The notes beneath the pieces are model-generated. The model had not been told where the DNA came from, did not search any database, and saw only the letters and a list, made by a program, of their open reading frames with translations. Shown one piece after another: positions 21,554 through 24,524 of a DNA stretch of 24,524 nt; the stretch's first letter is position 1, and each line of letters opens with the position of its first letter. This DNA is from Thainema sp. GTDB taxonomy: Bacteria > Cyanobacteriota > Cyanobacteriia > Phormidesmidales > Phormidesmidaceae. The DNA lies in the NCBI GenBank assembly GCA_052168235.1, contig JBQLZK010000080.1, positions 1-24,524 on the forward strand, written 5' to 3'. A program made the translations under genes and the position numbers.

Positions 21554-21561
21554 GCGATCGC
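21554..21561. repeat. HIP1 octamer GCGATCGC, last copy in the window, abutting the terminal attC
   Basis: Read directly. Other copies include 660, 4370, 10541, 14001, 18021 and 21448; none was found in 21562-24524. Confidence 0.9.
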
Positions 21562-21646
21562 ACTAACGGTTCGGGTGAGCGGTTGCCAGAACCTTTGCAA
21601 CTCAGCAAGTGGCTTAGGTAAATCTGCTGCACCCGAATTGTTAGAT
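21561..21646 (-). other. attC recombination site (closes the orphan-gene cassette)
   Basis: Minus strand ATCTAAC-AATTCGGGTG(C)AGCAG...CCGCTCACCCGAACC-GTTAGTG with one extrahelical base (G on the + / bottom strand); starts 18 bp after the stop at 21665. Confidence 0.88.
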
Positions 21647-21664: not shown

Positions 21665-22288
21665 TTAAGGGCAACCCCATGATGTCACAGCCAACAAACT
21701 TGCGCCTTCGCTTTTTACCTTTTCTAAAGCTCTTGGAATAGCATAAAGAGCATCTGAAACATCCTTTGCTGCGTGATCATCAAATCCCGCATAATCTAAC
21801 ACCAGCTTTGATCGCTCAAAATAAGCCTCCCAGTCAACATCAAGAATACGTGAGACAGATGCTAGCGTTGTCTCAACTTCACTTGCATGAATTAGCATAT
21901 TGCCGAGATGACCTGGAAGCTGAGCAAACCTTTCACTACCAATTCCCATTAGCAGAATAGCGGGCGGAGCTACGCGAGATTGCATGACCATCTCAACAAT
22001 ACTTTCAGGAGATAAAGGGAACTCCTCCTGCAAGATTCGACAACCTATCTCGTTGAAAGGTTCGTGATAGAGACTGGAACTCAAGTCTCCTCCTGCCAAT
22101 ACACCTTCTAGCACTGAGTAAGCATAATCCTCAGTTACAGGAATGGGTGGGTTCTTGGGTCGAGGTGCAAGGTTTGGCACTTCAGGAAGATCAGGTACTC
22201 CTTGCATTGCTTGCTCGAATTCTGACTGCACGACTGAAAATTCAGATTCCTCAACCTTACAAAACCACCAGAAAACATCAACGCCCAT
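21665..22288 (-). CDS. Hypothetical protein, integron cassette gene (207 aa, acidic)
   Basis: ORF fills the cassette between two attC sites. ATG 22288 (MGVDVFWW...) is preceded by AAGGGA. No recognisable family. Confidence 0.75.
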   Translation of the reverse strand: MGVDVFWWFCKVEESEFSVVQSEFEQAMQGVPDLPEVPNLAPRPKNPPIPVTEDYAYSVLEGVLAGGDLSSSLYHEPFNEIGCRILQEEFPLSPESIVEMVMQSRVAPPAILLMGIGSERFAQLPGHLGNMLIHASEVETTLASVSRILDVDWEAYFERSKLVLDYAGFDDHAAKDVSDALYAIPRALEKVKSEGASLLAVTSWGCP

Positions 22289-22406
22289 ATTTTCCCTTGA
22301 GTAGCAGAACTTTGAATTATGCTTCCCAATCTGCCTCAGCAATTAACTTTACTTTGAGAGCCAGGACAGACAGCTTTGAAGTATGTCTTTACCCAAAAAT
22401 TAAGCG

Positions 22407-22493
22407 ATCTAACGGTTTGGTTGAGCGGCTGTTCGTAACCTTTGCATCCTTGCCAGCAACGTTTGGTAGTCCGCTCCAACCGAATTGTTAGAC
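22407..22493 (-). other. attC recombination site (closes the TIR/nuclease cassette)
   Basis: Minus strand GTCTAAC-AATTCGGTTG(G)AGCGG...CCGCTCAACCAAACC-GTTAGAT; starts 8 bp after the stop at 22502. Confidence 0.9.
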
Positions 22494-22501
22494 ACGTTTG
22501 T

Positions 22502-23041
22502 CTATTCATGCTGCAAGTAGAATCTTTCAACGAGATCGACTATTAAATCACATGGATCTTCACCCCGTTCTTTGATAAAAAGCATTTCCTTGAGATGTTC
22601 TTTAGTCATAAAAAGAATTACCTTCCCATGTCGACTATATATAGTGTTTCGTTGTATATGAGCACCATTGTCGGGAAGCTTGCTACATATCATAATTGCA
22701 AGCCTACCCATAGGTTCAGTCAGGTAATTATCAGTTTGGATTACCTCTTCATGTCCGATATCTGTTGTTCCATAGTTTTTGAACTCAAAAAGTACCATCC
22801 TTGCTTCTAATTCCCGAAGCAGCAACCCCCAACCATGCTTCTCATCAAAGTTGCGATTAGGAAATACAGCGTCTCGGCGATTTGTACCAGAGTATGTTCG
22901 AGGCTGAGTGATTGGTTTAACCAATGGTGGAACAAATAAGAATTCAAGAACTTCTGTGCATAAGTCCTCAAATTCTCGCCAACCTCTTTCTCCGGCAGGG
23001 CAGTTATCAAGCCGATTGACCAAATCAGTAATTCGGCTCAT
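22502..23041 (-). CDS. PD-(D/E)xK restriction-endonuclease-like protein, coupled to the upstream TIR gene
   Basis: EFEDLC...RRDAVFPN...LFEFKNY motif order (E, D, ExK); ATGA overlap with 23038..23910. Confidence 0.72.
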   Translation of the reverse strand: MSRITDLVNRLDNCPAGERGWREFEDLCTEVLEFLFVPPLVKPITQPRTYSGTNRRDAVFPNRNFDEKHGWGLLLRELEARMVLFEFKNYGTTDIGHEEVIQTDNYLTEPMGRLAIMICSKLPDNGAHIQRNTIYSRHGKVILFMTKEHLKEMLFIKERGEDPCDLIVDLVERFYLQHE

Positions 23042-23910
23042 GAGGCGTTGCTCAAGCTGGGAGGAAAGTATTTGGAGACCAAATCAGTATTTTGTAGGAG
23101 AAGTCTTTTCAACTCCGTCCCATCAATGACACGGATTGAAATACCAAGGTTTTGGGGGGCATTATTTACCCAATCAAGAGCAGCAGATGTAAGGTTCCCA
23201 TTTGTAACAAGAAGCGCTTTATTGATTTTGGGATCGCTTTTAGCAATTCCAACTAGCTGTCTAAGTGCTGGTAAATCTGCGCGAGAATGACGATAAAGCT
23301 TAGTTTCGACAGCGTAAACATCACGAGTTTCAGCACCAAATGGGTCTTTTTGGCGAAACTCAACAACAGCATCAAACCCCCTGTCTCTTTGTTGCATCTC
23401 CAGATGCAAATTAACAAAACCAAGTTTTTGGAGAAGATCTACGACTAGTTGCTCAAAAATTTGTGGAGATAATTTTTCAAAATCAATTTTGGGAGTGGCC
23501 TTTAAAGCTTCAGCAAGTTCCTCTAAATTCTCTTTAACTCCGCTTCTCATATCAAAAAATTGATACATAGCAAGAGAGGGCGGAATATCACAGTCCTCTA
23601 AAAGCACAGGTATGAAGGTAACGTCTCGACTTTGTAACTCCTTTAATGCAGCATCAACTTCATAATTCATCCAAGAAGAACGTACCAAATTTTTAGACAG
23701 TAGAAGTAGAAAATAAGCACTGGCTGAAATGGCAGTGCGAATAGATTCAGCCCAATGATTTCCTGGACGAAGTTCATCAGTATCTAGCCACACTTTGAGA
23801 TCCAGCGAACACAACCCTTCCACAATCGATTTTGCAGTCGCACTGTCTGCGCTTGCATAGGTTACAAAAACTTGTGGTCTTTGTTGTGAGTTGCGTTCAA
23901 GAGTGTTCAT
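23038..23910 (-). CDS. TIR domain-Mrr-like restriction endonuclease fusion
   Basis: TIR: VFVTYASAD, VWLD...LRPG..W...I..AI, SSWMNYE (catalytic Glu position), FIPVLLEDC. Mrr_cat: FEQLVVDLL..LGF, DRGFD, VETKLY, LLVTN, VIDGTELKRLL. Confidence 0.88.
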   Translation of the reverse strand: MNTLERNSQQRPQVFVTYASADSATAKSIVEGLCSLDLKVWLDTDELRPGNHWAESIRTAISASAYFLLLLSKNLVRSSWMNYEVDAALKELQSRDVTFIPVLLEDCDIPPSLAMYQFFDMRSGVKENLEELAEALKATPKIDFEKLSPQIFEQLVVDLLQKLGFVNLHLEMQQRDRGFDAVVEFRQKDPFGAETRDVYAVETKLYRHSRADLPALRQLVGIAKSDPKINKALLVTNGNLTSAALDWVNNAPQNLGISIRVIDGTELKRLLLQNTDLVSKYFPPSLSNAS

Positions 23911-24055
23911 AATCCAATCCCTATGGGAAAGAGGAGCATTCAGGTAGGTATGCGCAGGACTAGCTTCACCTAAAATCTTAACTCATCGTAATAACAGCAC
24001 TTGCAATTCCCCAATTAAGGCTAAAACGTAATTCTTCTAACCTTGGGGCTGAGGT

Positions 24056-24141
24056 GTCTAACAATGAAGTTGAGCCGCGAACGACGCTTAGTCAGCGTCG
24101 TCGGGCTAACGGCGTTCGTCGGCTCCAACGAGTAGTTAAGT
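24056..24141 (-). other. attC recombination site (closes the ORF-less first cassette)
   Basis: Minus strand ACTTAAC-TACTC-GTTG(G)AGCCG(A)CGAACG...CGTTCGCGGCTCAAC-TTCATT-GTTAGAC, with two extrahelical bases and an inner hairpin ACGACGCT/AGCGTCGT. Confidence 0.88.
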
Positions 24142-24255: not shown

Positions 24256-24394
24256 TTTCTGCCTAATACCCCTATTCGGATGATTAGGCAGAAATACGTC
24301 AGCCTAACACGCCTATTTGGGTCATTAGGTAGAAATACGTCAGCCTAACACCCTGATTTGGGTGATTAGGCAGAAAAATTCAGTATAATCACCC
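24256..24394. repeat. Three ~41-bp tandem repeats of inverted GCCTAAY/ATTAGGY boxes
   Basis: Units at 24261-24301, 24302-24342 and 24343-24382, plus a partial fourth (GTATAATCACCC). Confidence 0.85.
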
Positions 24395-24524
24395 CTACAA
24401 CTCCAGGCTCACGCTGTTTAGAGAGTATTTATTATCCTTCAATATATATTCACTCCATGCAGCCGTCTCAGGGCACTGGTCGTCTAGAGGGTGATTGCTA
24501 AAATGGATGTGATGCATTGGTTTT

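Follow-up and report, generated by a model that had tools for sequence, protein, structure and literature searches.

What could a pair of overlapping genes, the first joining a TIR domain to an Mrr-like nuclease domain and the second carrying nuclease motifs of its own, be doing in a cyanobacterial integron cassette? The pair lies on the minus strand of a 24,524-base stretch of DNA from Thainema sp. (assembly GCA_052168235.1, contig JBQLZK010000080.1, C80 in our numbering), hereafter the window, which is the entire contig within an assembly of 7.54 Mb in 205 contigs. An initial annotation, made from the sequence, had proposed a two-gene anti-phage system between positions 22413 and 24061. The sequence comparisons presented here indicate that the pair is real, conserved and horizontally mobile, and that the most fitting description is a split Mrr/FokI-type nuclease with a TIR effector. 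To the further reading, that a heteromeric Mrr/FokI-like core and its TIR effector make up an anti-phage module of the abortive-infection type, we give an even chance. The features on which the argument turns are as follows.

23038-23910, minus strand: gene 1, encoding a TIR-Mrr fusion protein of 290 residues (open reading frame and Pfam)
23515-23871, minus strand: TIR domain of gene 1, residues 14-132 (Pfam TIR_2, E 5.4e-26)
23098-23478, minus strand: Mrr_cat PD-(D/E)xK domain of gene 1, residues 145-271 (Pfam Mrr_cat, E 2.7e-17)
22502-23041, minus strand: gene 2, encoding a single-domain protein of 179 residues, predicted to be a FokI-like PD-(D/E)xK nuclease (open reading frame and structure model)
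23038-23041, minus strand: ATGA stop/start overlap of genes 1 and 2 (the plus strand reads tcat)

The two genes form one conserved unit

As the initial annotation had read it, the TGA stop of gene 1 overlaps the ATG start of gene 2, and at related loci there is either an overlap of 1-8 bases or a spacing of a few bases. They are not chance open reading frames (ORFs), since gene 1 has 111 homologues and gene 2 has 932 (E ≤ 1e-3 for both). Nearly all of the gene 2 homologues are exactly 179 residues long, and the best 120 of the 932, with identities of 64-89%, come from Cyanobacteria, Acidobacteriota, Clostridium and Euryarchaeota.

When one genome per species was scanned, a relative of gene 2 turned up at 59 loci, and in 51 of them a relative of gene 1 stands directly 5' of it (tblastn; same strand, within 150 bases). 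The eight unpaired loci comprise one that is disrupted, with a gap of 346 bases (L021), three with gene 2 at a contig edge (L041, L055 and L057), three that hold only fragments of gene 2 (L056, L058 and L059) and one in which gene 2, at a contig end, is incomplete and the 3.7 kb upstream contain no partner (L052). Scripted ORF calling placed an ORF immediately against the upstream side of gene 2 at 49 loci. When 37 of these ORFs were scanned against Pfam, 12 close cyanobacterial near-duplicates being left out, both TIR_2 and Mrr_cat were detected in 36 (E ≤ 0.001).

Pairwise distances among the gene 1 sequences track those among the gene 2 sequences (Pearson 0.88 over 48 complete pairs), and none of 999 Mantel permutations reached this value, although kinship among the sequences inflates tests of this kind. 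Gene 1 diverges about 1.8 times as fast as gene 2 (mean p-distance 0.56 versus 0.32). The correlation fits the inheritance of both genes as one unit. Together, the pairing, the correlation and the fused forms described below uphold the claim that the two genes belong together.

Gene 1 joins a TIR domain to an Mrr-type nuclease domain

Both sets of catalytic motifs that had been picked out in gene 1 are in place. The TIR motif SSWMNYE ends at E84 (codon 23659-23661), a glutamate in S-x-W-x-x-x-E context that we take to be the NADase catalytic residue of TIR domains. In the Mrr-like domain, DRGFD holds D180 and VETK holds E202 and K204. In a set of 26 gene 1 partners drawn from many phyla, E202 never varies, and conservation is 90% or higher at E84, D180 and K204; an alignment of 61 gene 1 sequences agrees.

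The AlphaFold2 model of gene 1 has a mean predicted local distance difference test score (pLDDT) of 83.7 and a predicted template modelling score (pTM) of 0.82. Its TIR half matches the folds of AbTir (8g83, Z 13.2), Cat1 (9mud, Z 12.7) and other TIR proteins. The C-terminal half matches Mrr-like AF1548 (1y88, Z 13.1), AspBHI (Z 12.4), MspJI (Z 11.8), LlaBIII (Z 11.3) and the BspD6I small subunit (Z 10.3). By sequence, the TIR domain scores well against models of effector-type TIRs (PADLOC SAVED_TIR, E 1.3e-11, and Aga_TIR, E 1.8e-10; NCBIfam retron-TIR, E 2e-12) and finds AbTir (E 5.6e-7) and Cat1 (E 3.7e-6) in the Protein Data Bank (PDB). Its best score against ThsB models is poorer than those against the effector-type models (E 8e-7). 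The gene 1 TIR domain appears closest to the TIRs that act as NAD+-consuming effectors.

Gene 2 has the predicted fold of a FokI-type cleavage domain

Gene 2 had been credited with nuclease motifs of its own, and these are found at E25, D57 and E86-F-K88; D57, E86 and K88 are invariant among 19 relatives. The protein is assigned to a family neither by Pfam (best E 0.085) nor by NCBIfam. The AlphaFold2 model, built from an alignment of 88 sequences, has a pLDDT of 92.9 and a pTM of 0.89. A Foldseek search of the PDB with this model gave nothing at E ≤ 0.001 (best 1.2e-3, to MspJI), and a PDB sequence search with the gene 2 profile gave a single chance-level match (E 1.2). After the weak Foldseek result an exhaustive structure search was made with VIA-align, whose leading matches were these.

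2ewf_A: catalytic domain of the nickase N.BspD6I, Z 12.0
2p14_A: small subunit (186 residues) of heterodimeric R.BspD6I, Z 11.9, root-mean-square deviation 3.8, 154 residues aligned, model residues 4-179
2fok_A: cleavage domain of FokI, Z 11.7

The nuclease domains of LlaBIII, EcoT38I, AspBHI and MspJI score lower (Z 8.9-10.3). Sequence identity to the BspD6I and FokI enzymes is 9-12%. By the likeness of its predicted fold, gene 2 is a stand-alone cleavage subunit of the FokI type. Residues 4-179 of the model align to residues 1-173 of 2p14, and the nuclease fold takes up this whole length, leaving no space for an additional ligand-sensor domain. The C-terminal end of gene 2 (YLQHE) is almost invariant in bacteria and archaea (alignment A1).

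A predicted complex of the two proteins

Structure prediction for the two proteins together, the check that had been proposed for a heteromer, gave interface scores (ipSAE) of 0.75, 0.75 and 0.73; of three controls, the highest scored 0.00. At least 87% of contacts are shared between runs, and the pLDDT of the partners is 82 or more. The same ipSAE mark is reached by 116 of 157 solved complexes and by 2 of 215 mismatched pairs, a calibration that is approximate when, as here, alignments are supplied by the user. The predicted interface involves the N-terminal helix (residues 5-12) and the near-invariant C-terminal helices (149-176) of gene 2, and on gene 1 the Mrr residues 206-214 and 238-247 together with the TIR residues 55-63 and 91-96. 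A heteromer of genes 1 and 2 is plausible on these models; part of the score could stem from a resemblance to nuclease dimers of solved structure.

Relatives and fusions of the gene 2 domain

An exhaustive profile-free search returned at least 1,529 cluster representatives with the gene 2 domain (E ≤ 1e-3; clusters at 50% identity), most of them longer proteins in which the domain is C-terminal. Architectures were surveyed by a Pfam scan of 40 of the 150 representatives listed. P0238 (464 residues) and P0239 (471 residues) carry TIR_2, Mrr_cat and the gene 2 domain in a single chain, so that homologues of the two genes are found both side by side and fused. Mrr_cat lies upstream of the gene 2 domain in 18 of the 40, and eight of these are proteins of about 315-350 residues with little else. 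P0345 combines HNH, Mrr_cat and the gene 2 domain, and P0307 is a fusion with a C5 DNA methylase. Other scanned representatives carry KTSC, HTH_3, a QueC-like region or HEAT repeats, and 12 of the 40 have no Pfam match at all.

The Thainema genome itself encodes a 401-residue paralogue made up of HNH, a PD-(D/E)xK region (weak HSDR_N_2 match) and a gene 2 domain with 34% identity to gene 2. On an Armatimonadetes chromosome (L054, 3030-5996) the partner of gene 2 is a 988-residue protein with AAA_16/NACHT, then TIR, then Mrr_cat, a fusion from which it appears that the TIR-Mrr/gene 2 unit was recruited as the output of a STAND-type NTPase. Across these architectures the constant association is that of an Mrr-type domain with the gene 2 domain, and TIR or HNH occupies a variable N-terminal slot. 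Judging from the sequences, the core is probably a two-part nuclease and the TIR domain a swappable effector.

The gene for the 401-residue paralogue is at 271972-273177 of contig C1 (L063 3473-4678, plus strand), where its surroundings are ordinary: it lies between a TetR/MatE pair and a PIN-domain gene.

A proposed mechanism and its weak points

From the computed domain identities, intact catalytic motifs, co-inheritance, fusions and predicted interface we infer a defence role, a DNA trigger, NADase activity and an order of events as follows. The module would be self-contained, consist of two subunits and act against phages by a mechanism of the abortive-infection type. The Mrr domain of gene 1 and the gene 2 protein would bind each other to form a heteromeric nuclease or DNA-engaging core, like the subunits of R.BspD6I or the FokI dimer, with the TIR domain attached to this core as an exchangeable effector. 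In FokI the cleavage domains must dimerise, and Mva1269I has a tandem of two different catalytic domains. On engaging a DNA trigger the core would assemble and bring the TIR domains together, NAD+ would be consumed, and the paired nuclease sites may also cut DNA. This reading is supported by the swapping of effectors (TIR, HNH), by the NACHT-fused form and by the effector-like sequence of the TIR domain.

If the module does defend against phages, it would be a TIR system partnered by one half of a split restriction-type nuclease, and not by a signal receptor, an Argonaute or a cyclase. Such a system would link the architecture of restriction enzymes with separate FokI/BspD6I-type subunits to immunity by NAD+ depletion, and a widespread domain missing from both Pfam and NCBIfam would gain a function. 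At 1.4 kb for its two genes, or 1.65 kb once attC and leader are counted, the module is small; it appears complete in itself, and with homologues in Bacillus, Marinobacter and Rhodoferax it is open to testing in laboratory hosts.

Several observations weigh against the proposed anti-phage mechanism. Neither gene has a DNA-recognition or modification-reader domain detectable by Pfam or structure comparison. Profile-profile comparison detects no significant homology between gene 2 and the gene 1 Mrr domain (probability 1.2%, E 0.043), even though their catalytic motifs line up. Gene 2 is conserved to a degree that is unusual for a defence protein: its identity across phyla and into the archaea is 51-95%, while that of gene 1 is 26-83%. 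The ipSAE values express the model's own confidence in a predicted interface, and alignments supplied by the user lie outside its calibration. In Bacillus siamensis (L045) the pair persists with a partner that has Mrr_cat and in which Pfam detects no TIR domain, and most members of the wider family are without TIR; NAD+ depletion can therefore not be essential to the core.

The neighbourhood of the genes gives a mixed answer. PADLOC models were run at E ≤ 1e-10 over 144 ORFs from 21 loci, a scan that offers modest support since it had no background control, and 14 ORFs in 11 of the loci were positive. Specific defence genes among them are a bSEFIR (L036, E 5.9e-52), the DRT reverse transcriptase RT_UG21 (L039, E 1e-160), an RmrA-like gene (L040), a Type II methyltransferase (L001) and a CHAT gene (L017). 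Specific neighbours with a known defence role are thus present at about five of the 21 loci, and the remaining PADLOC matches are to generic families (ABC or SMC ATPases, kinases, DinG, TnpB-like proteins); both the small number and the generic matches count against a defence role.

A bolder version of the proposal, which we advance only tentatively and hold to be doubtful, is that the Mrr-like and FokI-like domains together make up a DNA-engaging sensor core of a new kind, whose assembly, from two genes here and within one chain in many genomes, switches on interchangeable N-terminal effectors, and that the gene 2 domain defines a large, un-annotated family of bacterial and archaeal immune modules. 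The effector would then be TIR here and HNH in the same-genome paralogue, with a NACHT-coupled form elsewhere, and the conservation of gene 2 would reflect simultaneous interfaces with its partner, with DNA and with itself.

Competing explanations

It is unlikely, in our estimation, that the pair is a restriction-type nuclease, Type IV-like or otherwise directed at DNA, in which Mrr and gene 2 would each cut one strand and the TIR domain would be a scaffold or regulator and not an NADase. The Mrr_cat family and the fold neighbours of both proteins are restriction enzymes (MspJI, AspBHI, LlaBIII, FokI and BspD6I), core-only Mrr-gene 2 proteins are the commonest architecture in the wider family, one relative (P0307) is fused to a methyltransferase, and the automatic name of related clusters in the ESM Atlas is 'Restriction endonuclease type IV Mrr domain-containing protein' (score 0.97). 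Retention of the TIR catalytic-position glutamate in at least 90% of partners nevertheless argues for an active TIR domain. A close parallel, R.BspD6I, is instructive on both sides. Gene 2 shares with it, and with FokI, the character of a stand-alone PD-(D/E)xK subunit of about 180 residues (fold Z 11.7-12.0), and it is likewise predicted to bind a second nuclease domain on a larger partner. Gene 1, however, consists of TIR and Mrr_cat only and has a TIR domain in place of a sequence-recognition domain, and the cassette has no cognate methyltransferase; a methyltransferase lies near the pair at only one of the 21 loci (L001). The Type IV enzyme Mrr and the modification-dependent MspJI and AspBHI are similar to gene 1 in their D...ExK catalytic domain (Z 11.8-12.4 for MspJI and AspBHI), whereas their N-terminal DNA or modification reader is replaced by TIR in gene 1, and here a second nuclease subunit is required.

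Less probable still is a pair of the Thoeris kind, in which the TIR protein would make a signal derived from ADP-ribose on infection and gene 2 would be a nuclease effector activated by that signal. The organisation is certainly reminiscent: a two-gene operon of patchy distribution, in which a TIR protein with the catalytic-position glutamate (TIR_2, E 5.4e-26; E84 at least 90% conserved) adjoins a conserved predicted DNase as putative effector. The variable TIR protein and its conserved partner mirror the variable ThsB and conserved effector of Thoeris, and gene 1 has weak ThsB_TIR and Thoeris matches. The main text of the preprint 10.64898/2025.12.03.692087 counts DNases among the effectors predicted for its 29 putative Thoeris types and validates types V-XI; its text passages leave the type IX effector without a name. 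The words 'Mrr', 'nuclease' and 'endonuclease' have no occurrence in that main text, a count that extends to neither Figure 1C nor Table S1, and the pair may be among the candidate types set out there. The signalling model is nonetheless hard to reconcile with gene 2, whose nuclease fold fills the whole protein and which has no match to a recognised ligand sensor (SLOG, Macro or other) in Pfam, NCBIfam or PADLOC. Its domain tracks Mrr_cat and not TIR, is fused to Mrr in some genomes and often occurs without any TIR in the wider family. The single-chain fusions and the predicted interface argue for a physical complex over a diffusible signal, and the TIR domain scores better against effector-type TIRs than against ThsB.

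Least probable of all, and hardly to be credited, is stabilisation of the integron array by a toxin-antitoxin or addiction element, with a gene 2 nuclease toxin restrained by gene 1 and no dedicated anti-phage role: two-gene cassettes in chromosomal integrons are often toxin-antitoxin pairs, and this cassette has two small overlapping genes, the more conserved one downstream, and what appears to be its own conserved upstream leader, but most relatives lie outside recognisable cassettes in varied contexts, single-chain fusions are hard to square with a labile antitoxin, and no known toxin-antitoxin family is matched in Pfam, PADLOC or NCBIfam.

Relation to named and candidate systems

The view that the pair is not a named system holds: PADLOC gives matches at the level of domains and no model spans either protein end to end. 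No methyltransferase, cyclase, prokaryotic Argonaute (pAgo) or ThsA-type partner was found within the cassette by Pfam, PADLOC or NCBIfam, as had been noted from the sequence.

Apart from Thoeris, the nearest TIR system is SPARTA, with the short pAgo partners of (Mrr-)TIR-APAZ type. These share with gene 1 a TIR of NADase-effector type and an Mrr-type domain, and the PADLOC models Aga_TIR and Aga_REase-TIR match the gene 1 TIR region; the nucleic-acid trigger is a property of SPARTA. The cassette differs in having neither APAZ nor pAgo, the Aga_TIR match covering only profile positions 2-134 of 430, and in having TIR before Mrr in gene 1 and a predicted FokI-like nuclease as partner. In the portions of the literature covered, 'TIR-Mrr', 'Mrr-TIR', 'TIR-REase' and 'REase-TIR' (REase, restriction endonuclease) are used only in work on short pAgo systems, SPARTA-related papers being the sole context in which 'Mrr-TIR' appears in print. 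'PDC-M36' does not occur in the literature searched, nor does 'Mrr_cat' together with 'TIR_2'. The passages of PMC9503650 covered mention REase effectors only in another context.

Some PADLOC candidate models overlap the pair in part. PDC-M36A aligns with gene 2 over 144 C-terminal positions (301-444 of 457, E 5e-15), the gene 1 TIR domain matches PDC-S66 (E 1.5e-14), and the Mrr domain matches PDC-M58A and PDC-S02. The PDC-M36 matches are partial only (301-444 of 457, or 176-307 of 330), and gene 1 has none. We rate the pair as a candidate variant of TIR-based and nuclease-based defence, with no named PADLOC match, and not as a new category.

Mobility of the module

Flanking genes differ from locus to locus and are mutually unrelated. 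A search for a third conserved gene 3' of gene 2 turned up recurring ORFs of 260-280 residues, and the candidate was rejected when these proved to be mutually unrelated (APH, LpxA-like, CN hydrolase, ABC-2 and others). Gene 2 is absent at 1e-10 from 60 related genomes, a set with one genome from the same genus and 35 from its family. GC content over the cassette is 41-43%, compared with about 48-56% in most of the window. The cassette setting, low GC content, patchy presence and unrelated flanks all mark the module as horizontally mobile, as far as genome comparison can indicate. Neither 50,697 phage records (tblastn) nor the IMG/VR viral contigs contained a match. Plasmids gave 94 matches, all below 60% identity and at most 35.3% among the 20 listed; the two that were inspected lie in larger proteins (373 and 689 residues).

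The integron cassette and its surroundings

The pair's setting in an integron cassette rests on the following features, the attC-like sites having been called by a relaxed scan, a pattern search and direct reading of the sequence.

22407-22493, minus strand: attC-like site 3' of gene 2 (GTCTAAC ... GTTAGAT on the minus strand; relaxed scan and pattern match)
24055-24137, minus strand: attC-like site 5' of the cassette (pattern match)
23911-24000, minus strand: putative non-coding leader or promoter region 5' of gene 1, conserved (shared sequence blocks)
24466-24524, plus strand: truncated start of an integron-integrase-like gene at the contig end, divergent from the cassettes

The cassette ends that had been assigned, 22413 and 24061, are each the G of a GTTAGA-type core site in one of the two attC-like inverted repeats, and the proposed integron setting is confirmed by RYYYAAC/GTTRRRY-type cores and paired arms on both sides. 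The site following gene 2 recurs in the same position in another locus (L001). Read on the minus strand, the inverted repeats have their extra unpaired base in the 5' arm. The arm that bears the extra base sets the orientation of an attC cassette, so the cassettes are oriented on the minus strand, like the genes. Integrons are known to store defence systems, and this would be a further example of a chromosomal integron cassette with a candidate one.

Upstream of gene 1 a leader of about 80 nucleotides contains the blocks GAGTTAAGCT, ATACCTAC and CTCCTC, which recur 5' of gene 1 in cyanobacterial loci (L001-L008, L006, L017) although the flanks of those loci otherwise differ. The conserved stretch may be the module's own promoter, operator or leader.

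No integron integrase above the model cut-off was found by profile search in the whole genome assembly. Part of contig C41 matches the window from 24055 to about 24470 at about 97% identity and includes an identical copy of the 24055-24137 attC-like site. The C41 copy continues into an ORF of 107 residues whose N-terminus resembles positions 1-62 of integrase_gron (E 1.2e-18, below the cut-off). From these sequences the integrase of the pair's integron looks degraded or incompletely assembled.

The succession of attC-like site, repeat-rich spacer and integrase-like start thus occurs twice in the genome, in the window and on C41 (L060, about 1390-2400), at about 97% identity. Two degraded integron platforms would account for this duplication, as would a break in the assembly at a repeat.

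Next to the TIR-Mrr/gene 2 cassette lies an adjoining cassette with an ORF of 225 residues (21665-22342, minus strand), which has no match in Pfam, PADLOC or NCBIfam, and its own attC-like site, the third of the window, at about 21561-21646. Between the integrase-like start and the first attC-like site are three tandem repeats of 41 nucleotides (24258-24380), 78-100% identical to the first copy and each with an inverted CCTAAT/ATTAGG; these could be attI-region repeats.

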